DNA of 64,000 nucleotides, taken from positions 33,426 to 97,425 of the forward strand of contig CAZZAL010000002.1 in assembly GCA_964652265.1 (NCBI GenBank). The letters run 5' to 3'. A model generated the notes under the pieces. It was not told where the DNA came from. It saw only the letters and a list, made by a program, of their open reading frames with translations, and did no database searches. This stretch comes from an uncultured Planctomycetia bacterium. Its GTDB lineage: Bacteria; Omnitrophota; Gorgyraeia; Gorgyraeales; Gorgyraeaceae. Each line of letters opens with the position of its first letter. The stretch's first letter is position 1. Made by a program: the position numbers and the translations under genes. Of this stretch, positions 2,630 through 48,466 are shown one piece after another.

Positions 2630-3658
2630 ATGCCAGAGTTAAGAAGAGATCCTATAATCGGAAGATGGGTAATAATCTCGGTTGAGAGGGCAAAAAGACC
2701 GACTGACTTTAAGATCTCTCATATAAAGGAGGCAGAAGGCGTGTGTCCGTTTTGCGAGGGGCATGAGAAAGATACGCTTCCAGAGGTCTATGCGATCAGA
2801 AAGCGGAGCTCAAAAAAAGATGGACCTGGCTGGAATGTCAGGGTGGTGCCGAGTATATCCGAGAGATTAGATGTAAGTTATAGCCTGGATAGACGCGGTG
2901 TCGGCATGTATGATGTGATGGATCCTATCGGGGCACATGAGGTAATAATAGAGTCGCCAAAGCATTTCGCAGATATCCATGAATTGCCTGCGAAACAAAT
3001 AGAGAATGTGATAAATGCGAGTTCCAAAAGGATTACAGAGTTAGGAAAAGACCAGCGCCTTAAATATTGCCTGCTTTTTAAGAATCACGGATTAAGGGCA
3101 GGGGGTTCAAAGGCCACAAAGCACGTACGATCTCAGATCATAGCTACGCCTGTCACGCCTACAAGGGTCAAGGAAGAGCTCAGGGGAGCCAGGTTTTATT
3201 ATAAATATAAAGAGCGGTGCATATTCTGTGATTTGTTGAGGCAGGAGTTTGACAATGCCAGCCGCATTGTCATGGATACAAAGACTATTGTGGCTATCGC
3301 GCCGTTTGCCTCAAGGTTTCCTTTTGAGGTGTGGATATTGCCGAAAAAACATTGTTCAGATTTCAGGGATATTGGAAGGGCTGAGGTGAGGGACCTCGCA
3401 ATTGTATTTAAAAGATTATTCGGAAAGCTCTCAAAAGCACTTAATGACCCGCCGTATAATTATATGTTGCATACTGTGCCTTTCAGACACGCAAAAAGAC
3501 CTGGCTACTGGCATACTATAAAAGAAGACTATCATTGGCACATAGAAGTTACACCGCGTATAACGCATATAGCGGGTTTTGAATGGGGTTCGGGATTTTA
3601 TATAAACTCAATGCCTCCTGAGGAGGCAGCAAGATATCTGCGGGAGACAAAACTTTAG
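2630..3658 (+). CDS. GalT-like (HIT superfamily, hexose-1-phosphate nucleotidyltransferase / ADP-glucose phosphorylase-like) paralog with degenerate active site
   Basis: CPFCEGHE zinc knuckle, GAHEVIIESP and C-terminal HWHIEVTPR...GFEWGSGFYIN are as in GalT-family proteins. The HxHxQ position reads KHVRSQ (His 3122-3124, Arg 3128-3130), and the NKFPAL position reads SISERL. Confidence 0.8.
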   Translation: MPELRRDPIIGRWVIISVERAKRPTDFKISHIKEAEGVCPFCEGHEKDTLPEVYAIRKRSSKKDGPGWNVRVVPSISERLDVSYSLDRRGVGMYDVMDPIGAHEVIIESPKHFADIHELPAKQIENVINASSKRITELGKDQRLKYCLLFKNHGLRAGGSKATKHVRSQIIATPVTPTRVKEELRGARFYYKYKERCIFCDLLRQEFDNASRIVMDTKTIVAIAPFASRFPFEVWILPKKHCSDFRDIGRAEVRDLAIVFKRLFGKLSKALNDPPYNYMLHTVPFRHAKRPGYWHTIKEDYHWHIEVTPRITHIAGFEWGSGFYINSMPPEEAARYLRETKL

Positions 3659-5672
<2,014 letters not shown>

Positions 5673-22219: not shown

Positions 22220-22962
22220 TACATAATATACACCTTACAATCGAATATGACGGCACCAGGTTTTGTGGCTGGCAGAGTCAGCGTCGAGGCAAAAAATTAA
22301 AAACAATACAAGAAGAGATTGAAAAAGCAGGAAAATGCCTTTTTGGAAAAAGGATTAAGGTGGCGGGTGCTGGCCGCACAGATTCAGGCGTTCATGCAGA
22401 GGCCCAGTCAGCAAGTTTTAAAATAGATTCAAACCTACCTTTACGTAATATAAAGAGAGGCCTTAATAGTTACCTCCCCAAAGACATTGCTGTTGTTTCT
22501 ACAGAGGCAGTAAAGTTGGATTTTCATCCCAGGTTTGATGCCAAAGAAAAGCTCTATAGGTATATCATAATCAACAGAAAGATACGTTCGCCTTTACTGA
22601 AGAGGCATGCTGCCCTTGTTTCTTATGACCTGGATATAGACGCGATGAAAGCGGCGGCAAGATATTTTATCGGAAAGAAAGATTTCAAGTCCTTCCAGGC
22701 AAGCGATAAAAAAGAAAAAGGCTCTGTGCGTACTATTACGAGATGTAATGTCGTTAATAAATCTCCTATAATAGAAGTATATATACAGGCAGACGGTTTT
22801 TTGTACAATATGGTCAGGAATATTGTCGGCACATTGATAGATGTGGGTAGGGGCAGGACAAAGCCAGGCGAGGTGAAAGTTATCTTATCTAAAAGAGAGC
22901 GCCGGGCAGCTGGTCAGACCGCGCCGGCAAAAGGCCTTTGTCTGGTCAAGGTATTTTATTGA
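22216..22962 (+). CDS. truA: tRNA pseudouridine(38-40) synthase
   Basis: IEYDGTRFCGWQSQ, and GAGRTDSGVHA with the catalytic Asp; 4-nt overlap with asd. Confidence 0.9.
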   Translation: MIHNIHLTIEYDGTRFCGWQSQRRGKKLKTIQEEIEKAGKCLFGKRIKVAGAGRTDSGVHAEAQSASFKIDSNLPLRNIKRGLNSYLPKDIAVVSTEAVKLDFHPRFDAKEKLYRYIIINRKIRSPLLKRHAALVSYDLDIDAMKAAARYFIGKKDFKSFQASDKKEKGSVRTITRCNVVNKSPIIEVYIQADGFLYNMVRNIVGTLIDVGRGRTKPGEVKVILSKRERRAAGQTAPAKGLCLVKVFY

Positions 22963-22964
22963 TA

Positions 22965-23510
22965 ATGGGATACGAGGCGTCTCTGGAAAAGGCATGGGGA
23001 GTGTTTGGTGCTGGGCTCGGAAACAGGCGCATAAGGTTTTTGGGCGACGAGTACGAGGTGGATTTTTCTAAAAGTGAGATTCTGTCTTTATCCCGCAATA
23101 TCAAGGCAAAGGATTATTATAAGATTTTAATACTTCATTATCTTGCGGCTGAAAATAAAATCGGAGATACAAATAAAGACAAATGGATATCATTCAAGGA
23201 GACAGAAGGTGGAAAAGAATATTTTCCAGCATTTCGCAAAAGAGCTATAGAGCCTATACTTAAAAAATACGGAGATAACCCTGCTTTAATATTTGAAGTA
23301 GCAAGACCTTTAGGAGCAGAGAAGATGGACGCAGGAAGCGCAGCTGTATCTATAGAGGTATTTCCGGGGGTAAAGGTCGGAGTAGTCATTTGGGCCAAAG
23401 ATGATGAGTTCAGTGCAGATTGTAATATTTTATTTAACGAAACCATAAAAAAGATTCTGCCAACCGAAGACGTGGCTGTTCTTGGAGGGATAGTAGCTCA
23501 TTCTTTATAA
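22965..23510 (+). CDS. Hypothetical protein (resembles DUF3786-type proteins from memory; unverified)
   Basis: 181 aa: MGYEASLEKAWGVF...RFLGDEYEVDF...ILILHYL...WISFKE. No catalytic motif recognised. Starts 3 nt after the truA stop. Confidence 0.5.
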   Translation: MGYEASLEKAWGVFGAGLGNRRIRFLGDEYEVDFSKSEILSLSRNIKAKDYYKILILHYLAAENKIGDTNKDKWISFKETEGGKEYFPAFRKRAIEPILKKYGDNPALIFEVARPLGAEKMDAGSAAVSIEVFPGVKVGVVIWAKDDEFSADCNILFNETIKKILPTEDVAVLGGIVAHSL

Positions 23511-23511
23511 T

Positions 23512-24309
23512 ATGCCTAAGAATATTGTTTACATAATTATAGTAGTAATGTTTTTATTAGGTTATTTACGTTATTTTGAATACAGATCTCTTTATTTTCC
23601 GATGGAAGATTTGGAATATACCCCAGCTGATATAGGCCTATCTTACAGTGACGAGTATGTCGTTACAGATGACGGTAAGAAATTGAATGCCTGGCTGATC
23701 CCTGCGAAAGATTCACGATTTACTCTTTTATTCTGCCATGGCAATGGAGGAAATATAAGCCACAGGATATATAAGATAGGGATATTGAATAGTTTAGGCG
23801 TTTCCGTCTTTATCTTTGATTATAGAGGGTATGGAAGGAGCACTGGAAGGCCTTCTGAGAGAGGCCTTTACAAAGATGCTCTGGCCGCGTATGAATACCT
23901 GGTTTCCGAAAAAAAGGTCTCTCCTGACCGGATAATCCTTTATGGCGAATCTCTTGGTGGTGCGGTCGCAACCCATCTTGCCTTACAAAGGCCTGTAGAG
24001 GCGCTAATAACAGAATCCGCTTTTACATCTACGCCAGATATGGCAAGAGAGATTTATCCTATATTTCCCACGTTTTTTATCTCTTCGAGATTTGATATCC
24101 TGACCAAGATAAAGGATGTGGGTATCCCAAAACTTATAATGCACTCCAAGGATGACGAGATAGTGCCATTCGGTCATTCTGTAAAACTCTTCAATGCTTC
24201 TTCTGGAGAAAAAACGCATCTTGTGCTAAGGGGTAGTCATAATAGCTGCTACCAGGATTCAGGGGATAGATATTCTTCAGGGATCAAGGGATTTTTAGAA
24301 AGACTATGA
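23512..24309 (+). CDS. Membrane-anchored alpha/beta hydrolase (serine hydrolase, lysophospholipase/aminopeptidase S33-like)
   Basis: N-terminal TM helix (IVYIIIVVMFLLGYL), HGNGGN oxyanion region, GESLGG nucleophile elbow, and a late HSKDDEIVP / GSHN Asp and His candidates. Confidence 0.8.
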   Translation: MPKNIVYIIIVVMFLLGYLRYFEYRSLYFPMEDLEYTPADIGLSYSDEYVVTDDGKKLNAWLIPAKDSRFTLLFCHGNGGNISHRIYKIGILNSLGVSVFIFDYRGYGRSTGRPSERGLYKDALAAYEYLVSEKKVSPDRIILYGESLGGAVATHLALQRPVEALITESAFTSTPDMAREIYPIFPTFFISSRFDILTKIKDVGIPKLIMHSKDDEIVPFGHSVKLFNASSGEKTHLVLRGSHNSCYQDSGDRYSSGIKGFLERL

Positions 24310-25208
24310 AGTCGCGAATTTTATACGAGGTAGATCCTCACAATAGACTTATCGTTAAGAAGTCTAGCAAGCGATCTGAAGTCAAGCAATTCCGTCAGGT
24401 CGTGAGTGGCCGGTTTAAGACGGATAAAAAGAACAAGCTTTCCTACGAAATCCTTAAATCCTCCGCATCTAGCATTCCTCAGAAGATAAAATTTTCCGGC
24501 AGGTATTTACTGAATGAAAAGCACAACCTTGTTTACGTCCTGGATAAATGGAATAACCAGTATGCGGGGAACCGACTCAGGTTAAAGACAGGGATCATAG
24601 ATGCACGCTCTAACGAAATAATCTTTTTACTGAATTCCAGGCAATCCAAAAATAAAAGTTCAGTTTATACCATGAAGCTCCATGGCGCGTGGCAGGCAGA
24701 TAAACATAATCGGCTTACCTTTGGCGTAAAGAAAGGAGATGGGAGATCTGACACCCTGACTTTTTTTAACGCATGGAAAGTAAATAAAAATAGAGAAATA
24801 GAATATATATTTGGACCAGGGGAGAATTCTATAAAGCTTAAGGGTTCCTGGTGCATAAAGAAGAGGGGCCGGCTCAGTTACATTCTGGATAAAAGGATTG
24901 GTTCGGGGTTTAATTTTCGGACATCACTAGGTCATGTAATCCCAAAAAGAGGCAAGACTTATCTCATATTTAACATTATAATAGAGATATCAAAAGGGAA
25001 GCACATCAAAAGAAAGATTATTTTTTCAGGCAAGTGGAGCGTGACGAAGGGTAGAAAGATCGAACTGGAGCTTTCTCCCAGCAGAAAAAAGATTATAACC
25101 CTAAAATTGACAAAAGATATCTTGGATAAAAAAGGCATTGCTTATATAGAGTCTTTCCTTAAGGAGAGAGACAGGTATTTAGGCGGAGGAGTTTCATTAG
25201 GATGGTAG
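24306..25208 (+). CDS. Basic repeat protein of unknown function (about 7-8 beta-hairpin-like units)
   Basis: 300 aa, Lys/Arg-rich. A recurring ~30-aa unit with G-x-(W/F/Y)...(N/R)-x-L-x-Y: VVSGRFKTDKKNKLSYEIL, IKFSGRYLLNEKHNLVYVLD, MKLHGAWQADKHNRLTFGV, LTFFNAWKVNKNREIEYIF, IKLKGSWCIKKRGRLSYILD, IIFSGKWSVTKGRKIELEL. ATGA overlap upstream. Confidence 0.6.
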   Translation: MKSRILYEVDPHNRLIVKKSSKRSEVKQFRQVVSGRFKTDKKNKLSYEILKSSASSIPQKIKFSGRYLLNEKHNLVYVLDKWNNQYAGNRLRLKTGIIDARSNEIIFLLNSRQSKNKSSVYTMKLHGAWQADKHNRLTFGVKKGDGRSDTLTFFNAWKVNKNREIEYIFGPGENSIKLKGSWCIKKRGRLSYILDKRIGSGFNFRTSLGHVIPKRGKTYLIFNIIIEISKGKHIKRKIIFSGKWSVTKGRKIELELSPSRKKIITLKLTKDILDKKGIAYIESFLKERDRYLGGGVSLGW

Positions 25209-27853
25209 CTTATAGCATGAACGAGAATTTTATTAGATCGGTCGAGCAATTCCAGGATAGGATTGCAATCGAGAATAGGGCAGGCGGTAGATTTAAGACC
25301 CTGACTTACACTGAGCTGGATAAAGAGGTGAAGGCTGCAGCCTGTTTCATATCCTCGATTGGCATCAGAAAATCTGACAGAGTGATAATTATCCTTGAGA
25401 ACTCTCCTGAGTGGATAATAATCTTTTTTGCGTTAGCTTATATAGGCGCAGTTGTAGTACCTCTTGATCCGCGGATGTCTGAAAAAGGTATTAAAAATAT
25501 AATCTCTGATTCCGGAGCAACGCTTGCTTTTATTTCCAAAGAGGACCAGAGGCTGTCTGAATCCTTAAAAGAAGAAATCCGTATTCTTACATTTGAAGAT
25601 ATAAAAGAATCGCCCTTGCAGGGAAAGATCGAAAGCGCTCGCGTGGAGCCAGACGAGACAATGGTCCTTTTATATACCTCTGGCACCACAGATCTTCCAA
25701 AAGGCGTGATGCTGACGCATAAAAACCTCTGCGCAAATTTTTATTCCATGAAACAGATGAAGATCTTTTCTACAAGAGATGTAATATTATCTGTCCTGCC
25801 ACTTTATCATTCATATTCACTTATGACCACGTTTATCGCCCCGTTTTTTTCAGGCTCCAGGATCATATATGTGCCACCTGACTGGCCGGAGAAATTGAGC
25901 GACTATATGAAAGAAGTAGGCGCGACCATGTTTATTGGCGTGCCGCAGATATATCATATGATGCACGCTCGCATGATGAAGAAACTCGATAAAGTAGGAG
26001 GCGCTAGAGGGCTCTATATAAAATTAGCGATATCTCTTGGTCTTGCAAAACCTTTGATACCTGGCCTCAGAGGTGCCTTTGGAAAAAAACTTCGTTTTTT
26101 TATAAGCGGAGGAGCAAAGCTTGATGCGACCGTAGCGCGAGATTTTTTTAAGCTTGGCTTTAAGATATTAGAAGGATATGGCCTGACAGAGACATCTCCT
26201 GTTGCCAGCTTAAATCCAATAAGAAGGCCAAAGATCGGTTCGATCGGACAGGCTATACCTGATGTAGAGCTAAAGCTCCTCAGTAAAGATGTGAACGGAG
26301 TAGGGGAGATCGCTATCAAAGGTCCGAATGTCATGAAAGGATATTATAATAATGAGGCAAAGACCAGGGAAGTGATCAAGGACGGCTGGTTTTTTTCAGG
26401 CGATCTCGGGTATGCGGATAAGGACGGGTACTTTTATATTACAGGCCGGTCCAAGGAGATGATCGTCCTTTCATCAGGAAAAAACATCTACCCTGAAGAG
26501 ATAGAAAAACATTATTCTGTGACACCCTATATAAAGGAGATGTGCGTTTTAGGTGTCTTAAAAGATAAGGGCGGAAGTAAATTAGAATATTTGCATGCGG
26601 TCGTGGTACCGGACTTTGAGTTTTTTAAGGAGCGGGGAGAGATGAATGTACGAAAGGTAATAAAGGCTACATTTGATAATCTTTCAAAGGACCTGCCGGG
26701 TTATAAGCACATCATGGGATTGAGTGTTACCCAGGAAGCCCTTCCTCGCACAGTGCTCGGGAAGATGAAACGCTACGAGATCGAAAAAAAGATCATGCCT
26801 GTTATTTTAGATGAGAGGAAAGAAGAGAAAGAGCTGACGCCTCAGGAAGAGGCGATGGCCGGGTCTCCTAACGCAAAGAGATTGATCAAGTGTATACAGG
26901 ATGCGCTGGATGTCAAAGGCCCGATACATCTTAATGATAGCATAGAGCTTGACCTGGGTGTTGATTCGCTCGGCAGGGTGGAGCTCGTGCTGGCTATTGA
27001 AAAATGTTTTGATATAACGTTTCCTGAAGAGATGGTCGCAGGAGAGATCTTTACAATAAAGGACGTACTCTTGAAAGTAGAGGAATTACTTGGAGAAGGC
27101 GAGAGAAAAGGATCTAAAAGCGAGAAGGGACAAGGAAGAAAAGCCATATCATGGCCTGAGATCCTAAGACAGCCTTTGCCAGAAGAATTTCAGAAAAAGA
27201 TATTATTGCGTATAAGCTGGGTTGATTACGTGATTACTTTTTTGATCACGGGACTCTTTAAGATATTTTTCAAGATTTTTTATAATCTTAAAGTGGAAGA
27301 CGTTAATAAGATTCCGAGGAAAGGGCCGTATGTCCTGTGTGTGAATCACACGAGTTTTCTAGACGGCTTTATCGTGGCGGCTGGAGTTCCGGTCAGGATA
27401 GAATTGGATCTATTTTTTATTGGATTCAGGCGGTATTTTATATTTCCTATAGTGAGGAACATGGTAAGGCGCTCAAGGATCATTCCTATAGATGCTACCG
27501 AGATCATAGAGGCCATGCAGGGTTCGAGTTTTATTTTGAAACATAATAAGGCCCTGTGTATTTTTCCAGAAGGCGAGCGTTCTATAGATGGCGAGCCAAA
27601 GGAATTTAAGAAAGGCATAGGTATAATCGCCAAGGAATTAGGCGTGCCTCTTGTGCCTGTTTTGATCAAAGGTGCATTCCAGGCATGGCCTAGGACAGAG
27701 CGTTTTCCGAGACTCGCTCCAATAAAAATAAGATTTGGAGACCCTGTAGCTAGTGCTACGCTTATTAAGAAAGGCAAAGTCCTTGGCGGGAGAGATGATG
27801 AAGAAGCTATTTCCCTGGCTATCAGAGAGGAATTGGTCAGATTAAAATGTTAA
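25202..27853 (+). CDS. Tri-domain fusion: acyl-AMP/CoA ligase (ANL) - acyl carrier domain - TM segment - PlsC/LPLAT acyltransferase
   Basis: ANL motifs YTSGTTDLPKGV, GYGLTETS, GDLGYADKDGYFYITGRSKEMI and GKMKR. Carrier motif LGVDSLGRVEL (Ser codon 26966-26968). Hydrophobic ITFLITGLFKIFFKIF. LPLAT motifs NHTSFLDG (His 27347-27349), FPEGERS and VPLVPV. Start could be 25202 or Met 25217. Confidence 0.85.
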   Translation: MVAYSMNENFIRSVEQFQDRIAIENRAGGRFKTLTYTELDKEVKAAACFISSIGIRKSDRVIIILENSPEWIIIFFALAYIGAVVVPLDPRMSEKGIKNIISDSGATLAFISKEDQRLSESLKEEIRILTFEDIKESPLQGKIESARVEPDETMVLLYTSGTTDLPKGVMLTHKNLCANFYSMKQMKIFSTRDVILSVLPLYHSYSLMTTFIAPFFSGSRIIYVPPDWPEKLSDYMKEVGATMFIGVPQIYHMMHARMMKKLDKVGGARGLYIKLAISLGLAKPLIPGLRGAFGKKLRFFISGGAKLDATVARDFFKLGFKILEGYGLTETSPVASLNPIRRPKIGSIGQAIPDVELKLLSKDVNGVGEIAIKGPNVMKGYYNNEAKTREVIKDGWFFSGDLGYADKDGYFYITGRSKEMIVLSSGKNIYPEEIEKHYSVTPYIKEMCVLGVLKDKGGSKLEYLHAVVVPDFEFFKERGEMNVRKVIKATFDNLSKDLPGYKHIMGLSVTQEALPRTVLGKMKRYEIEKKIMPVILDERKEEKELTPQEEAMAGSPNAKRLIKCIQDALDVKGPIHLNDSIELDLGVDSLGRVELVLAIEKCFDITFPEEMVAGEIFTIKDVLLKVEELLGEGERKGSKSEKGQGRKAISWPEILRQPLPEEFQKKILLRISWVDYVITFLITGLFKIFFKIFYNLKVEDVNKIPRKGPYVLCVNHTSFLDGFIVAAGVPVRIELDLFFIGFRRYFIFPIVRNMVRRSRIIPIDATEIIEAMQGSSFILKHNKALCIFPEGERSIDGEPKEFKKGIGIIAKELGVPLVPVLIKGAFQAWPRTERFPRLAPIKIRFGDPVASATLIKKGKVLGGRDDEEAISLAIREELVRLKC

Positions 27854-29859
27854 AGAAGCTAATACTTGTTTCAGTCAGCTTTCTCAGTCTTTTTCTGGAG
27901 CTCTGCCTTATACGGTGGATACCTGCGCATATTTTTTCCATAGCATTTTTTTCAAATACTGTTCTTATAGCTTCTTTTCTGGGGCTGGGGCTTGGTCTTC
28001 TTCTGTCAGAAAAAAAGCGAGACCTCTTCAGTGTCTTTCCGTGGATCTTTGCCATCAGTGTAGTAGTAGTTTTGTTATTAAAGAATATTCAGGTTGATAT
28101 CCCTGCTGATGCCGAGACCTGGATATGGAGCTACTACCACGGGAATAGACTATATGTGCCTCCGTTTAAGATTTCCATTATCGCAGTCCTTGGTTTTGTC
28201 TTTAGCGTGACGATTTTTATTTTTATTCCCATCGGGCAGAAGATAGGGAAACTAATGAAGGATTTTTCTCCGCTCCATGGCTATACGTTAAATATTATAG
28301 GTAGCCTGCTTGGCGTTATAGGTTTTGCAATAGTCAGTTTTTTAAATGCCCCGGCTTTTTTATGGTTTTTGATAGCAGGGCTTATTATTTTAGCGCTATT
28401 TTATAAAAGACGGGGATTCATCGGATGCTTGGCTATAGTTATTTTTATTGTGGCTATGGTTGGATTAGTAGAGAAGGATACAGTCTGGTCCCCTTATTAT
28501 TCTATCGAACTCTCAGAATCGGACGAGGATGGGTTTAGTCTTTATGTAAATCAGCTTTTTCACCAAAGGGCAGTAGATTTTGATAAAGAGTCGTATGCGG
28601 CTGATAAATTTTTGTTCCCCTATAGATGGTTTAGCCCTGAGAGAGTCCTTATAATAGGCTCTGGTACTGGAAATGACGTATGGGCTGCCAGAAAGTCTGG
28701 GGCGAAGCATATAGATGCTGTTGAGATCGATCCTGTGATTGTTGAGCTGGGCAGAAAACGCCATCCTCAACTTCCGTATGATAGTGATAGTGTTAGAGTT
28801 TTCATGGATGATGCACGTTCCTTTATGCATAAAAGTTCTCAGCCGTACGATATGATAGTATATGGGACCCTGGATTCCCATGCCACGCTTTCAGTGACTT
28901 CGTCCATTCGCCTTGATAACTACGTGTATACCCGTGAGGCGTTCGAGGAGACACGGAAGCTTCTTTCTCCGGATGGGGTCATGGTGTTACTTTTTTCAGT
29001 TCCGACTGAGTGGATAAAACAAAGGCTTTTAGAAACCGTGCGTTCTGTTTTCAGGGAAGATGAAGTGCGATATATAGTCACAGATCCTTATTTGTTTAAT
29101 CTTATAATATTTGCAGGACCTGGCCTTGATACGGCGCTTTCAAGATATCCTGAATTAAAAAGCACGCTGTCAGGGCCGCCTTTAAAGGCAGATATAAAGA
29201 TCCCCAAGGATGATTGGCCATATTTATATCTTAAAAAGGCCGGGATCCCACATCTTTACCTGATTACCCTTCTGACGCTCATCTTTATTTCCGTTACAGG
29301 GATATTTGTTTTTACGCCTTTAAGGCGGGGGAGAATAAATCCGTTTTTTCTTTCTATGGGATGCGGTTTTCTTCTTCTTGAGACAAAGAGCGTGACCACG
29401 CTTTCATTGCTTTTTGGCTCTACGTGGATAGTAAACGCAGTGGTGTTTTCAGCCATCCTTTTTCTTGCGTTATTGGCTAATTGGCTCGTGATGACAAAGA
29501 AGCTGGATGAGACAAAGTGGTTTTTTGGGGCCCTTGTTTTGTCTTTAATCGGCAGTTATTTTTTTCCTTTAAATAGTCTTTTGAGATTGAGTTTTTTCAT
29601 GAAGGTCTTTGCAGCAGGTCTCTTGGCAGGGCTGCCTATTTTCTTTGCAGCTGTTATATTCGCTATTGTTTTTAGGCGCACTAAGTATGCTGGTATAGCC
29701 CTTGGCTCTAATCTTATAGGAGCAGTAATCGGAGGTTTTTTAGAATATAGCTCTATGTTATGGGGGTTAAGCGCGCTTTATATAGTGGCATTGGGATGGT
29801 ATTTGATTGCTGGGTTTTGTTTGTTTAATCCGCTATCTTCATCATTGTCAAAAGCATAA
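27847..29859 (+). CDS. Polytopic membrane protein with central spermidine-synthase-like (class I SAM/dcSAM-fold) domain
   Basis: About 6-7 hydrophobic helices N-terminal. The central domain is VLIIGSGTGNDVWAARKSGAKHIDAVEIDPVIVELGRK...DDARSF...YDMIVYGTLDSH. About 6-7 further helices are C-terminal. 7-nt overlap with the upstream fusion gene. Confidence 0.75.
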   Translation: MLKKLILVSVSFLSLFLELCLIRWIPAHIFSIAFFSNTVLIASFLGLGLGLLLSEKKRDLFSVFPWIFAISVVVVLLLKNIQVDIPADAETWIWSYYHGNRLYVPPFKISIIAVLGFVFSVTIFIFIPIGQKIGKLMKDFSPLHGYTLNIIGSLLGVIGFAIVSFLNAPAFLWFLIAGLIILALFYKRRGFIGCLAIVIFIVAMVGLVEKDTVWSPYYSIELSESDEDGFSLYVNQLFHQRAVDFDKESYAADKFLFPYRWFSPERVLIIGSGTGNDVWAARKSGAKHIDAVEIDPVIVELGRKRHPQLPYDSDSVRVFMDDARSFMHKSSQPYDMIVYGTLDSHATLSVTSSIRLDNYVYTREAFEETRKLLSPDGVMVLLFSVPTEWIKQRLLETVRSVFREDEVRYIVTDPYLFNLIIFAGPGLDTALSRYPELKSTLSGPPLKADIKIPKDDWPYLYLKKAGIPHLYLITLLTLIFISVTGIFVFTPLRRGRINPFFLSMGCGFLLLETKSVTTLSLLFGSTWIVNAVVFSAILFLALLANWLVMTKKLDETKWFFGALVLSLIGSYFFPLNSLLRLSFFMKVFAAGLLAGLPIFFAAVIFAIVFRRTKYAGIALGSNLIGAVIGGFLEYSSMLWGLSALYIVALGWYLIAGFCLFNPLSSSLSKA

Positions 29860-29888: not shown

Positions 29889-30809
29889 ATGAAGAAGGGC
29901 ATAGATTATTTTACAAGACTTTTACCTGTGTGGACAGTGCTTGCAGGTATCCTGGGGTATTTTTTTCCAGCTATACTCGTTCCGTTGAAAGGGCATATTG
30001 AATGGCTTTTTATGCTGACAATGTTGGGCATAGGCACGGTCTTGAATTACGAGGATTTTTTACCGATAATTAAAAAACCTCACACTGCTCTCTTGGGTAC
30101 CCTTACGCAGTTTGCAGTGATGCCTCTTCTTGGATTTACAATAGCAAGGATATTGAATCTTTCACCAGCCCTTACTTTAGGGCTTGTGCTGGTCGGAAGC
30201 GTGCCAGGGGCGATGGCAAGTAATGTAATCTCTTATCTGGCAAAGGCAGATGTCGCGTATTCTATTTCAGTCACGACTACCTCTACGTTTCTTGCGCCGC
30301 TTTTAACACCTCTTTTCATATATATCTTTGCGCATACGATAATAGAGATACAGTTCTGGCCCATGTTTTTTAGTATTGTAAAGATGGTCATAGTGCCGCT
30401 TCTTGCAGGACTTTTTATAAAGAGACATTTTAAAAGATTGCTCGAGACATTTTCAAATATCGCTCCTGCGTTTTCAACAGTTTTTATAGCCCTTATATGC
30501 GGCTTGATCGTGGCGTTAAATAGAGACCATTTATTGAGCGTGAGCGTGGTTGTATTTATAGCAGTGTTCTGGCATAATCTATTAGGCCTTGCTTCAGGAT
30601 ATGGCGCTGCCAAGCTTTACGGATTTGAGGCAAAAAGGAGACGCACGCTTTCTATAGAGGTAGGCATGCAGAACGCAGGACTTGGCGCAGTGCTTGCCCT
30701 GAAACATTTCAGTGCAGATGTTGCTATAGTGCCTGCGCTTTTTGCTACGTGGTGCGTGATAACAGCATCTATACTTGCAGAGTTCTGGAGCAAAAGGAGG
30801 GTAATATGA
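29889..30809 (+). CDS. Bile acid:sodium symporter (BASS/SBF) family transporter
   Basis: 306 aa, about 9-10 TM helices. GSVPGAMASNVISYLAKADVAYSI and EVGMQNAGLGAVLA motifs typical of the SBF-like family. RBS GAGGAGAAGG. Confidence 0.8.
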   Translation: MKKGIDYFTRLLPVWTVLAGILGYFFPAILVPLKGHIEWLFMLTMLGIGTVLNYEDFLPIIKKPHTALLGTLTQFAVMPLLGFTIARILNLSPALTLGLVLVGSVPGAMASNVISYLAKADVAYSISVTTTSTFLAPLLTPLFIYIFAHTIIEIQFWPMFFSIVKMVIVPLLAGLFIKRHFKRLLETFSNIAPAFSTVFIALICGLIVALNRDHLLSVSVVVFIAVFWHNLLGLASGYGAAKLYGFEAKRRRTLSIEVGMQNAGLGAVLALKHFSADVAIVPALFATWCVITASILAEFWSKRRVI

Positions 30810-47254: not shown

Positions 47255-48097
47255 ATGGAAGTTTATCGAGGCGTAAAACCGTTAATAGACAGGATAGATA
47301 AGGTAAAAAAACAGGGTAAACGCATAGGTTTTGTGCCTACCATGGGTTTTTTACACGAGGGCCACTTAAGCCTCATAAGAAAGGCAGCCAAGGATACAGA
47401 CTGCGTGGTAGTAAGTATCTTTGTAAATCCTATCCAGTTTGGACCAGGGGAGGATCTTGAAAAATACCCCAGAGACTTAAGGCGCGATTTAAGGTTTTGC
47501 AGGGATAATGGTGTGGACGCTGTATTTATTCCTATGTCAAAGATGTTGTATGGAAATGGATTTTCAACCTATGTGGATGTTAAAAATCTTACGGATGGCC
47601 TTTGTGGGATCCAAAGACCAGACCATTTTAAAGGTGTCGCAACTGTAGTTGCGAAACTTTTTAATATTATAAGGCCTGATGTGGCATATTTTGGTCAAAA
47701 GGATGCACAGCAGACGCTTTTAATCAAAAAAATGGTCGAAGACCTTGATATACCTGTAAAAATAAAAGTCATGCCTATTGTTAGAGAAAAAGATGGCCTT
47801 GCAATGAGTTCGAGGAATGCATATTTAAATAGTTGTCAGAGGAGAGAGGCACTTTCGTTATATAAGTCTTTAAGGGTAGCTAGGGATCTGCATAAAAGAG
47901 GAGAAAAGAACTCAAAAAAAATAATCAGAGAGATGCGCAGTGTAATCCTTAAGGAGAGGCACGCAAGCATAGAGTATGTTTCAATAGTAGATCTTAAAAG
48001 GCTTAAGCCTATAAATAGGATTTCCGAAAAGACGCTGGTTGCAGTGGCAGTTAAAATCGGAAAGACAAGATTAATAGATAACATCATCTTAAATTAA
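47255..48097 (+). CDS. panC: Pantoate--beta-alanine ligase
   Basis: VPTMGFLHEGHLSL, FGQKDAQQ, REKDGLAMSSRN. Confidence 0.9.
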   Translation: MEVYRGVKPLIDRIDKVKKQGKRIGFVPTMGFLHEGHLSLIRKAAKDTDCVVVSIFVNPIQFGPGEDLEKYPRDLRRDLRFCRDNGVDAVFIPMSKMLYGNGFSTYVDVKNLTDGLCGIQRPDHFKGVATVVAKLFNIIRPDVAYFGQKDAQQTLLIKKMVEDLDIPVKIKVMPIVREKDGLAMSSRNAYLNSCQRREALSLYKSLRVARDLHKRGEKNSKKIIREMRSVILKERHASIEYVSIVDLKRLKPINRISEKTLVAVAVKIGKTRLIDNIILN

Positions 48098-48109
48098 AGG
48101 AGATAGATT

Positions 48110-48466
48110 ATGTTCCGCACAATTTTAAAATCAAAGATACATGGGGCAAAGGTTACACAGTCAAATCTGGAATATAAAGGAAGCATTACAATAGATCCTG
48201 AATTACTGGAGGCGGTTGATCTCATCCTTAATGAAAAGGTCCAAGTGATAAATCTTAATAATGCCAGTAGGCTGGAAACATATGTCATAGCTGGCGAGAA
48301 GGGTTCAGGTATCATAGGCATGAACGGTGGGGCAGCGCTACATGCTGCTGTAGGTGATAAGCTTCTTATAATGTCTTATGCCTTAATGGAGACAAAGAAT
48401 GCTATTAGCTATGCCCCAAAGATTGTTTTTCTCGACGATAAAAATAAGATAGTCGATAGAAAGTAG
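48110..48466 (+). CDS. panD: Aspartate 1-decarboxylase (pyruvoyl-dependent)
   Basis: MFRTILKSKIHGAKVT, YKGSITID (Gly-Ser self-processing site), NGGAA. Confidence 0.9.
   Translation: MFRTILKSKIHGAKVTQSNLEYKGSITIDPELLEAVDLILNEKVQVINLNNASRLETYVIAGEKGSGIIGMNGGAALHAAVGDKLLIMSYALMETKNAISYAPKIVFLDDKNKIVDRK

Follow-up and report, generated by a model that had tools for sequence, protein, structure and literature searches.

A fused ligase–carrier–acyltransferase protein of Omnitrophota with a predicted role in lysolipid reacylation

The window (the whole 64-kb stretch of DNA that was analysed) holds a gene that joins a ligase, an acyl-carrier domain and a PlsC-type acyltransferase in a single polypeptide, and each of the three domains keeps its catalytic residues unchanged across all 116 homologues compared. 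With moderate confidence, we propose that this fusion protein takes a free fatty acid, loads it onto its own carrier and passes it to a lysolipid, in an Aas-like reacylation with the ACP built in. At 50% identity, the family to which it belongs has 292 representatives, and 245 of its loci lie in GTDB species genomes. Almost all of the family falls within Omnitrophota, where it is nevertheless not universal, and some branches belong to Nitrospirota.

Three domains in one stable open reading frame

The fusion gene (25202..27853, + strand) is intact, with an ATG start, 883 codons for amino acids and no internal stop. The earlier note had read it as one polypeptide carrying a ligase, a carrier and a PlsC acyltransferase, and the Pfam HMMs bore this out with matches well past chance level: AMP-binding (PF00501, residues 12-382; 290 bits, E 3e-86), PP-binding (PF00550, residues 560-613; 34.4 bits against a cut-off of 20.8) and Acyltransferase (PF01553, residues 696-823; 77.4 bits against a cut-off of 23) all exceeded their gathering scores. 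The motifs and coordinates quoted there are likewise all correct, namely YTSGTTDLPKGV (158-169), GYGLTETS (325-332), GDLGYADKDGYFYITGRSKEMI (400-421) and GKMKR (520-524) in the ligase, LGVDSLGRVEL (585-595) in the carrier, and NHTSFLDG (715-722), FPEGERS (788-794) and VPLVPV (815-820) in the acyltransferase. The ligase and the carrier-acyltransferase part lie within one reading frame at 84 of 86 related loci, so that the fusion is stable. Conservation was scored in an alignment of 116 homologues sharing 42-92% identity.

The first domain (25235..26791, + strand) is a member of the ANL adenylate-forming superfamily, with an N-subdomain at residues 12-382 and a C-subdomain at about 419-530, where Pfam AMP-binding_C matched weakly. 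Its A3 (P-loop), A5, A7, A8 (hinge) and A10 motifs (YTSGT..PKG, GYG.TE, GD, GR.K and G-K521, the last holding the catalytic A10 lysine) are invariant in all 116 homologues. In the PDB the domain comes closest to feruloyl/fatty-acyl-CoA synthetase, MatB and FadD13, and Foldseek gave TM scores of 0.85-0.87 against MatB and feruloyl-CoA synthetase. We rejected membership of the FAAL subfamily, as CoA ligases (8weu, MatB, FadD13; 1e-51 to 1e-46) were much closer than EcFAAL (3pbk; 1.8e-31) and a fold alignment with MatB (550 columns for 503 residues) revealed no extra segment of the FAAL insertion type.

The carrier domain (residues 547-635; 26840..27106, + strand) resembles FAS-II ACP at the sequence level, with matches at about 1e-5 in which the DSL motif aligns with theirs. 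In the model it is an acyl/peptidyl carrier fold, a four-helix bundle in which Ser589 opens the helix at 589-603, so that the DSL serine sits where carrier helix II begins; flexible linkers are modelled on both sides of it. This position, together with the invariance of D588-S589-L590 in all 116 homologues, down to 42% identity, marks Ser589 (codon 26966..26968, + strand) as the predicted phosphopantetheine attachment site. Some relatives carry two or three tandem carriers, and some variants have two acyltransferase domains.

The ligase and the carrier are also spaced as in known adenylation-carrier proteins. Ser589 follows K521 by 68 residues, a spacing similar to that of NRPS A-T didomains; in these and in FAAL-ACP proteins the carrier serine lies about 70 residues past the adenylation domain. 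The A-PCP structures of McyG (4r0m) and SrfA-C (2vsq) superpose over the ligase and carrier of the fusion protein. Its adenylation domain groups with CoA ligases, however, and thereby differs from the FAAL of FAAL-ACP proteins. Fusions of a FAAL-like acyl-activating domain with an LPLAT domain have already been recorded, with their function left unassigned (PMC8460268).

Between the carrier and the acyltransferase, the earlier note had placed a TM segment. The AlphaFold2 model instead has one amphipathic helix at residues 673-694 (27218..27283, + strand), with a mean Kyte-Doolittle hydropathy of 1.43 and a hydrophobic moment of 1.42. The protein's best 19-residue hydropathy stretch contains 2 lysines, and across the family the maximal 19-residue hydropathy has a median of 1.71, the stretch holding 2 charged residues. 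From the model, this helix is more likely an interfacial anchor than a membrane-spanning one; a true TM helix here is unlikely because it would put the carrier and the acyltransferase on opposite sides of the membrane.

The C-terminal domain (residues 696-882; 27287..27847, + strand) is an LPLAT/PlsC acyltransferase, with the HX4D motif of block I, the FPEGxR motif of block III and the proline of block IV. H716 (27347-27349), D721 (27362-27364), F788-P-E790 and R793 are invariant in all 116 homologues, and P819 is present in 115. Its best solved relative is the stand-alone PlsC of Thermotoga maritima, TmPlsC (5KYM; E 3.6e-9), with which the HX4D and FPEGxR blocks align. Helix 673-694 takes the place of the part of TmPlsC that lies N-terminal to the aligned core. 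Both proteins have a hydrophobic helix before the catalytic core, as would be expected of a monotopic membrane anchor. They differ in the donor: TmPlsC, of 247 residues, takes acyl-ACP or acyl-CoA from solution, whereas we expect the fusion protein to carry its donor tethered in cis.

Similarity to Aas in a reversed order

Both catalytic halves are homologous to those of Escherichia coli K-12 Aas (b2836), the bifunctional 2-acylglycerophosphoethanolamine acyltransferase/acyl-ACP synthetase; by BLASTP, the ligase shares 27% identity with it (E 3e-35) and the acyltransferase 22% (E 7e-11). We predict that the two proteins have their chemistry in common, with ATP-dependent loading of a free fatty acid onto a phosphopantetheine thiol followed by acylation of a lysophospholipid. 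The order of the domains is opposite, as the comparison with a reversed Aas had suggested: residues 681-825 of the fusion protein align with Aas 1-140, and residues 95-436 with Aas 292-631, so that the ligase comes first in the fusion and the acyltransferase first in Aas. Moreover, Aas uses a separate ACP, whereas the fusion protein has its carrier built in. The best NCBIfam match of the acyltransferase domain is the Aas-type PRK08633, at 88 bits and below that model's full-length cut-off, ahead of the AGP acyltransferase profile TIGR00530 at 59.9 bits; all NCBIfam Aas models score well under their cut-offs against the fusion protein. An OlsF profile matched the domain weakly. The block II residue R743 is kept as Arg in 99 of the 116 homologues and replaced by Lys in 10, which we infer would suit a phosphate-bearing acceptor.

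A recurrent alpha/beta-hydrolase partner

In the window, the neighbours of the fusion gene encode a DUF3786 protein, an alpha/beta-hydrolase, a 300-residue protein and a SpeE-like protein. The hydrolase (23512..24309, + strand; 265 aa) matches Hydrolase_4/Abhydrolase_1 in Pfam and has an N-terminal TM helix at residues 4-22 and the triad Ser147/Asp215/His243. It is the sole widely conserved partner of the family and its most recurrent neighbour, found at 36 of 85 loci and always on the same strand. Among 46 well-flanked loci, 27 have it fused or within 5 kb (about 16 abutting), with the triad conserved, and in one member (P0099) it is fused to the N-terminus of the ligase. Its closest PDB relatives are the alpha/beta-hydrolase domains of MARTX RtxA (E about 1e-15). 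The ABH domain of Vibrio cholerae is a phospholipase A1 (PMC4640098), although the likeness to that domain spans only about 90 residues around the nucleophile. Where the fusion family is accompanied by the hydrolase, the Aas operon has LplT. An MFS transporter recurs near the family; it is not LplT-like (E 0.32), and therefore the parallel with Aas/LplT is incomplete. Genes for a patatin-like phospholipase and for another PlsC-type acyltransferase also recur nearby, at 11 and 8 loci respectively.

The other two neighbours are of narrower distribution. The basic, 300-residue accessory protein (24306..25208, + strand), whose gene overlaps the start of the fusion gene by 7 nt at its stop, had no match in Pfam or NCBIfam; it has about 166 homologues, nearly all in Omnitrophota, and its gene stands directly upstream of the fusion gene at 11 loci, all in the close clade. 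AlphaFold2 predicts it as all-beta (pLDDT 74), and our search found no structural match to this model. Downstream, a polytopic membrane protein of 670 residues (27847..29859, + strand) overlaps the stop of the fusion gene by 7 nt. It has a central spermidine-synthase-like domain of the methyltransferase fold (Pfam Spermine_synth, 46.6 bits), flanked by hydrophobic segments that number about 7 on the N-terminal side and about 5 on the C-terminal side; it adjoins the fusion gene at only 2 related loci and is thus no conserved partner. At another locus (L003), polyamine genes lie downstream of the fusion gene. In a clade at about 43% identity the gene has other neighbours: it is clustered with genes for a GtrA-like membrane protein, for a carrier-acyltransferase protein that lacks the ligase, and for a GT4 glycosyltransferase fused to the hydrolase.

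A model for acyl transfer in cis

Our model suggests that the ANL domain would use ATP to adenylate a free, probably long-chain, fatty acid, and that the ligase would then thioesterify the acyl group onto the phosphopantetheine arm at Ser589 of the same protein. The carrier would swing on its disordered linker to the PlsC-type domain, which the amphipathic helix may hold on the cytoplasmic face of the membrane, and the H716/D721 dyad would move the acyl chain to a hydroxyl of a lysoglycerophospholipid. The membrane-anchored hydrolase would most likely be a phospholipase or lysophospholipase that provides the free fatty acid, the lysolipid acceptor or both. We hypothesize that the two proteins form a deacylation/reacylation module for remodelling or salvage.

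The mechanism that the earlier note had proposed, in which a fatty acid is activated, tethered in cis and handed on to a lysolipid, is the best-supported reading because the DSL motif is invariant, relatives have tandem carriers, and the ligase and ACP domains of Myxococcus xanthus ElbD are active in vitro (PMC9131029). We also favour it because the acyltransferase prefers the Aas-type over the AGPAT profile and both halves are homologous to Aas; because the hydrolase is co-directional or fused and its solved relatives are of the MARTX ABH type; because a patatin-like phospholipase and a second PlsC-type acyltransferase recur nearby; and because the fusion is stable, has tandem-carrier and two-acyltransferase variants, and aligns with A-PCP structures at the 68-residue spacing. 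The accompanying proposal that CoA is bypassed is not established, since the ligase is CoA-ligase-like and not FAAL-like; acyl-CoA could also be a product, which counts against our reading. Further observations weigh in the same direction: no PPTase gene was found within the window, the hydrolase is missing at about 40% of well-flanked loci and resembles the phospholipase A1 domain over a short stretch only, the recurrent MFS transporter is unlike LplT, the neighbours in the distant clade differ, and the ElbD acyltransferase was inactive in vitro (PMC9131029).

Alternative functions

The acyltransferase might instead substitute for PlsC/PlsB, acylating lysophosphatidic acid or glycerol-3-phosphate and so building phospholipids de novo from scavenged fatty acids. 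The relationship to TmPlsC and the TIGR00530 match fit this alternative, as do the absence of fab, acpP and plsX/Y/C genes from the window and the host-dependent traits of Omnitrophota nanobacteria (PMC10066038). We consider it possible but unlikely, as the Aas-type profile outscores the AGPAT profile, the family is not phylum-wide, and other PlsC-type genes adjoin at the 8 loci mentioned; nor did we find a literature statement that Omnitrophota lack fatty-acid synthesis. If true, this would be the main membrane-building route by which ultra-small, possibly host-dependent Omnitrophota use exogenous fatty acids.

Somewhat less probable is a non-phospholipid acceptor (a glycolipid, an amino- or polyamine lipid, or a lipoprotein), which the PlsC-fold domain would acylate on O or N as part of a specialised pathway for envelope lipids. 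The overlapping spermidine-synthase-like gene, the polyamine genes at L003 and the weak OlsF match point this way, and the GtrA-like, ligase-less carrier-acyltransferase and GT4-hydrolase neighbours in the distant clade hint at such an acceptor in that clade. Against this, the GT4 and SpeE-like genes are not conserved family-wide, phospholipid acyltransferases are the best profile matches, and the Arg or Lys at position 743 would fit a phosphate.

We think it improbable that the fusion protein is an ElbD orthologue with its reductase supplied in trans, marking a capacity for alkyl-ether lipids. ElbD of M. xanthus has the architecture FAR-ACS-ACP-AT (PMC9131029), and by this published architecture the fusion protein has the same ACS-ACP-AGPAT core in the same order. 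With ElbD as the BLAST query, 93 of 267 Black Sea Omnitrophota MAGs were scored as having 'ElbD homologues' (PMC11868695). However, ElbD starts with a FAR1-like reductase, whereas AMP-binding in the fusion protein starts at residue 12, and no NAD_binding_4/FAR domain was found in it or in 130 relatives with listed domains (the precomputed domains of the 120 closest homologues and 10 atypical members); the length of ElbD was seen in none of the best 150 representatives. The elb operon context (elbB, HAD phosphohydrolase; elbC; elbE, NAD-dependent epimerase) is absent at this locus, and neither HAD, epimerase nor reductase families were among the recurrent neighbours in 85 loci. In addition, Pontiella has an ElbD homologue yet no ether lipids (PMC11868695). 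Since neither the reductase domain nor elb neighbours were found, our data do not support an ether-lipid role of the ElbD type, and the family is probably not an ether-lipid marker. The label 'ElbD-like without reductase' agrees with the literature: as cited in PMC9131029, Lorenzen et al. (2014) described FAR-less ElbD-like homologues in other phyla, and the layout was thus known before.

Finally, that the ligase just makes acyl-CoA for the acyltransferase, with the carrier a vestigial or structural spacer, is highly improbable: genuine CoA ligases are closest to the ligase, no sign of FAAL features was seen in it and many PlsC enzymes accept acyl-CoA, but a vestigial domain would lose its attachment serine, and here the Asp-Ser-Leu is invariant and some members have two or three copies of the carrier.

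Implications

If our preferred mechanism of tethered reacylation is true, there is a second form of Aas-type lysolipid reacylation, arranged independently and with the carrier covalently built in, and a single polypeptide would be convenient for studies of channelling from ligase to carrier to acyltransferase. Environmental lipid surveys have inferred a capacity for ether lipids from the 'ElbD homologues' of Omnitrophota (PMC11868695); that the reductase and the elb context are absent here argues against reading such matches in this way. The conserved pairing with the membrane-anchored hydrolase makes it possible to test ideas on how membrane lipids are turned over or scavenged in an uncultured nanobacterial phylum. 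More speculatively, the fusion protein and its phospholipase-like partner, with the all-beta protein in this clade, might form a self-contained acyl-exchange machine that dispenses with free CoA and soluble ACP; this would perhaps be the principal acylation route of ultra-small, host-dependent Omnitrophota, which may use it to build or remodel their membranes directly from the fatty acids or lipids of other cells.

The fusion gene encodes a ligase, a carrier and an acyltransferase

An earlier note, made from the sequence alone, had read window 25202-27853 (+) as one gene for an 883-residue ligase-carrier-acyltransferase. This ORF is intact and has an ATG start. All the motifs quoted for it were found, with the carrier serine, Ser589, at exactly 26966-26968 and the acyltransferase histidine, His716, at exactly 27347-27349. 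Pfam detected the three domains in this single ORF: AMP-binding (residues 12-382, E 3e-86, with a weak match to the AMP-binding C-terminal subdomain at 419-530), PP-binding (560-613; 34.4 bits, cut-off 20.8) and Acyltransferase PF01553 (696-823; 77.4 bits, cut-off 23).

The sequences nearest to the adenylation half are CoA ligases, namely the feruloyl/fatty-acyl-CoA synthetase 8wev/8weu (1e-51), the malonyl-CoA synthetase MatB and M. tuberculosis FadD13, while the E. coli FAAL 3pbk reaches only 1.8e-31. Judged by sequence, the activating domain is CoA-ligase-like. The carrier is similar to FAS-II ACPs (about 1e-5), with aligned DSL motifs. The best solved relative of the C-terminal domain is T. 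maritima PlsC 5KYM (3.6e-9), with HX4D and FPEGxR aligned, and the top NCBIfam model for the acyltransferase half is the Aas-type 'acyl-[ACP]-phospholipid O-acyltransferase' PRK08633 (88 bits, against 59.9 bits for the generic AGP acyltransferase model).

We compared the protein directly with E. coli K-12 Aas, the acyl-ACP synthetase/lysophospholipid acyltransferase: both domains are homologous and their order is permuted. The alignments pair residues 95-436 with Aas 292-631 (27% identity, E 3e-35) and residues 681-825 with Aas 1-140 (22%, E 7e-11). Apart from its domain order, the fusion protein differs from Aas in having its own carrier domain and no partner of the type of LplT, which shares an operon with Aas.

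The helix preceding the acyltransferase resembles an interfacial anchor

We modelled the fusion protein with AlphaFold2, using 61 homologues (mean pLDDT 80.6). The model comprises the ligase (residues 1-536, followed by a short low-confidence linker), a four-helix carrier (547-635) whose helix 589-603 starts at Ser589, a disordered linker (636-650), a single 22-residue helix (673-694) and the acyltransferase core (697-882). In Foldseek searches, the N-terminal part superposed on MatB and feruloyl-CoA synthetase (TM 0.85-0.87 on the target), and the NRPS A-PCP didomains McyG 4r0m and SrfA-C 2vsq aligned across ~680 columns, which correspond to the ligase plus the carrier.

A transmembrane segment had been proposed between the carrier and the acyltransferase. 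The model does contain a helix there, but its properties disfavour a membrane span. Helix 673-694 is amphipathic (mean hydropathy 1.43, hydrophobic moment 1.42) and has two Lys within its best 19-residue window; the family median of maximal 19-residue hydropathy is 1.71. A span is also disfavoured because it would leave the carrier and the ligase, which needs ATP, on one side of the membrane and the acyltransferase on the other. Monotopic PlsC has N-terminal anchoring helices, and the 5KYM core aligned to the acyltransferase domain begins at 5KYM residue 56. Since the helix is amphipathic and a span would separate donor from catalyst, we read the modelled helix as an interfacial anchor, as in monotopic PlsC.

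The three active sites are invariant in a family centred on Omnitrophota

We aligned 116 full-length homologues, which share 42-92% identity. Invariant in this alignment are the P-loop, GYG.TE, GD, the GR.K hinge and the A10 Lys521 of the ligase; D588-S589-L590 of the carrier; and H716, D721, F788-P-E790 and R793 of the acyltransferase. The ligase and carrier-acyltransferase halves are held in a single ORF in 84 of 86 related loci. The family members P0158, P0181 and P0160 have two or three carriers in tandem, and P0246 has two acyltransferase domains. The invariant active sites, the persistence of both halves in one ORF and the carrier tandems are what one would expect of a carrier that works as a shuttle and is no spacer.

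The closest homologues come from Candidatus Omnitrophota and are annotated only as 'AMP-binding protein' or 'long-chain acyl-CoA synthetase'. When only the carrier-acyltransferase half was used as query, an exhaustive search gave 292 representatives (50% clustering, E <= 1e-30), mostly of 870-940 aa; no ElbD-length protein occurs among the best 150 of them. Scanning GTDB species genomes with a query alignment of 5 sequences yielded 245 loci. The best 80 of these are mostly from Omnitrophota, some under evidently wrong MAG labels, the others being from Nitrospirota/Thermodesulfovibrionales, one Auribacterota MAG and one Elusimicrobiota MAG. Several GTDB representative MAGs with an Omnitrophota-type gene, some with the same synteny (loci L009, L011, L013, L014, L018, L020, L043, L049, L050 and L052), are titled 'uncultured Planctomycetia', 'Coxiellaceae' or 'Gammaproteobacteria', and these record titles are probably taxonomically mislabelled. 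The Omnitrophota MAG PPR_0458 has the fusion gene twice, on different contigs (L024, L040); thus, paralogues exist in some genomes.

An alpha/beta-hydrolase is the most recurrent partner

For 85 loci we took every ORF lying no more than 5 kb from the fusion gene and clustered this set without prior assumptions. The most recurrent neighbour is an alpha/beta-hydrolase (36 of 85 loci, always on the same strand), represented in the window by a 265-aa protein at 23512-24309 (+). Among the 46 loci having at least 3 kb of flank on each side, it lies within 5 kb or is fused in 27, and about 16 of the hydrolase genes abut or overlap the fusion gene. Its position varies: upstream in the window, L001 and L006, downstream in L003. 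In one family member of 1162 aa, P0099, it is fused to the ligase N-terminus, and in L004 and L005 it is fused to a GT4 glycosyltransferase beside the fusion gene.

The catalytic triad of the hydrolase, Ser147/Asp215/His243, is conserved, and the protein carries an N-terminal TM helix. Its catalytic domain should face the cytoplasm, since the P0099 fusion puts the hydrolase directly ahead of the cytoplasmic ligase. Among solved structures, it is closest to MARTX RtxA alpha/beta-hydrolase domains (E about 1e-15), with esterases and monoacylglycerol lipases next; the sources searched offer no name more specific than 'alpha/beta hydrolase' or 'FrsA'. In V. cholerae, the ABH domain of MARTX is a phospholipase A1 specific for PI3P (PMC4640098). 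As the alignment spans ~90 residues, we treat a phospholipase A1 role only as a lead.

The 85 loci also repeatedly contain a lipobox-bearing patatin-like phospholipase (11 loci), an additional PlsC-type acyltransferase (8 loci), two-component regulators and an ATG22-like MFS transporter (13 loci). We considered whether this transporter parallels LplT and rejected the idea, since it is ATG22/MFS_1-like and unrelated to E. coli LplT (E 0.32).

A clade at about 43% identity has the fusion gene in a different cluster (L005 1-8724, L004 1-8748). This cluster encodes a GtrA-like 891-aa membrane protein, a ligase-less carrier+acyltransferase protein (about 490 aa) and the GT4 glycosyltransferase-hydrolase fusion (about 695 aa), with a patatin-like lipoprotein and a PLDc_N protein downstream, and may represent an acylated-glycolipid pathway.

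The fusion gene lies in a tightly packed gene run

In the window, the fusion gene sits inside a tightly packed + strand run, in the order leuCD, leuB, asd, truA, DUF3786, the hydrolase (23512-24309), a 300-aa protein (24306-25208), the fusion gene, a 670-aa protein (27847-29859) and an SBF/PanS-like transporter. Neighbouring genes overlap at three consecutive junctions, by 4, 7 and 7 nt. In a search for operon boundaries, promoter- and terminator-like sites occurred no more often than in shuffled sequence; the GC content is even, without an island. Apart from the fusion gene, the 64-kb window contains no fatty-acid synthesis, acpP, plsX/Y/C or PPTase genes (the upstream 16 kb was judged by eye).

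The very basic 300-aa protein, whose stop overlaps the fusion gene start by 7 nt, has no match in Pfam or NCBIfam. Its ~166 homologues, nearly all from Omnitrophota, are all annotated 'hypothetical', and its AlphaFold2 model is all-beta (pLDDT 74), with no fold match in the PDB by Foldseek (best TM 0.15). It is limited to the close clade, where its gene immediately precedes the fusion gene in 11 loci. The 670-aa membrane protein, whose start overlaps the fusion gene stop by 7 nt, has a central spermidine-synthase-like/methyltransferase-fold domain, preceded by about 7 hydrophobic segments and followed by about 5. As only 2 related loci have this SpeE-like gene beside the fusion gene, we left it out of the core.

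The DUF3786 gene (22938-23510, +), whose start may overlap the end of truA, is immediately 5' of the hydrolase gene in 6 loci of the close clade (L001, L006, L009, L013, L020, L021). The SBF-family transporter just downstream of the cluster (29889-30809, +) has the PanS pantothenate/pantoate transporter as its best model (245 bits, cut-off 400), and panC (47255-48097, +) and panD (48110-48466, +) also lie in the window; the three may be relevant to phosphopantetheine-precursor supply, or this may be coincidence. Farther upstream, two tandem paralogues of 342 and 329 aa (2630-4648, +), which by eye look like galactose-1-phosphate uridylyltransferase/HIT-type proteins, adjoin gap, glgA, a GH57-like gene, pgk and tpiA.

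Discussion

The best-supported scheme for the fusion protein is Aas chemistry with a built-in ACP. A free fatty acid would be adenylated at the expense of ATP and thioesterified onto the protein's own holo-carrier; the flexible linker would then deliver the acyl carrier to the membrane-anchored acyltransferase, which would move the acyl group to a lysoglycerophospholipid. The hydrolase, plus the patatin in some lineages, would supply the lysolipid and/or the fatty acid, forming a deacylation/reacylation module. The first two steps have direct precedent, since the ligase and ACP domains of the Myxococcus ether-lipid enzyme ElbD are active in vitro (PMC9131029). We infer the final transfer and the identity of its acceptor. 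This scheme preserves the domain order, tethering in cis and lysolipid transfer of the earlier note, with caveats on that acceptor, on the 'TM' and on the proposed bypass of CoA, which is no firmer than plausible because the ligase is CoA-ligase-like.

We think it unlikely that the enzyme instead serves de novo acylation of LPA or G3P with scavenged fatty acids. A non-phospholipid acceptor, to which the GT4/GtrA context of the distant clade and the SpeE-like neighbour in the window would point, seems a little less probable again. The two weakest explanations are an ElbD-type ether-lipid role with the reductase in trans, which is improbable given that no FAR reductase domain was found in the fusion protein or 130 domain-listed relatives and no elb-type gene among the recurrent neighbours of the 85 loci, and acyl-CoA formation with a vestigial carrier, which is scarcely credible with the carrier serine invariant in 116 homologues.

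The architecture itself is already on record. ElbD is FAR-ACS-ACP-AT (PMC9131029), and the fusion protein differs from it in lacking both the reductase and the elb operon context. One passage of a review, citing Lorenzen et al. 2014, describes ElbD-like homologues without FAR in other phyla as unstudied (PMC9131029), which agrees with the label 'ElbD-like without reductase' given earlier to this protein. Fusions of an acyl-activating domain with a lysophospholipid acyltransferase have also been mentioned (PMC8460268). Our literature search found no published biochemistry of the reductase-less architecture, and no mention of lipids or fatty-acid synthesis in two papers on Omnitrophota as a phylum. 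What we add is the three invariant active sites, the compact Omnitrophota/Nitrospirota distribution, the CoA-ligase-like activating domain, the reinterpreted 'TM' helix and the conserved hydrolase partnership, fusions included.

In a Black Sea survey, 'ElbD homologues' reported for 93 of 267 Omnitrophota MAGs were counted as a potential for ether-lipid synthesis, and the paper also noted that Pontiella has an ElbD homologue and does not make ether lipids (PMC11868695). Our family is the obvious candidate for these Omnitrophota homologues, and it counsels caution in taking ElbD similarity as an ether-lipid marker. While the architecture by itself will not surprise a specialist, the family is a clean candidate for a reacylation enzyme that carries its own carrier.
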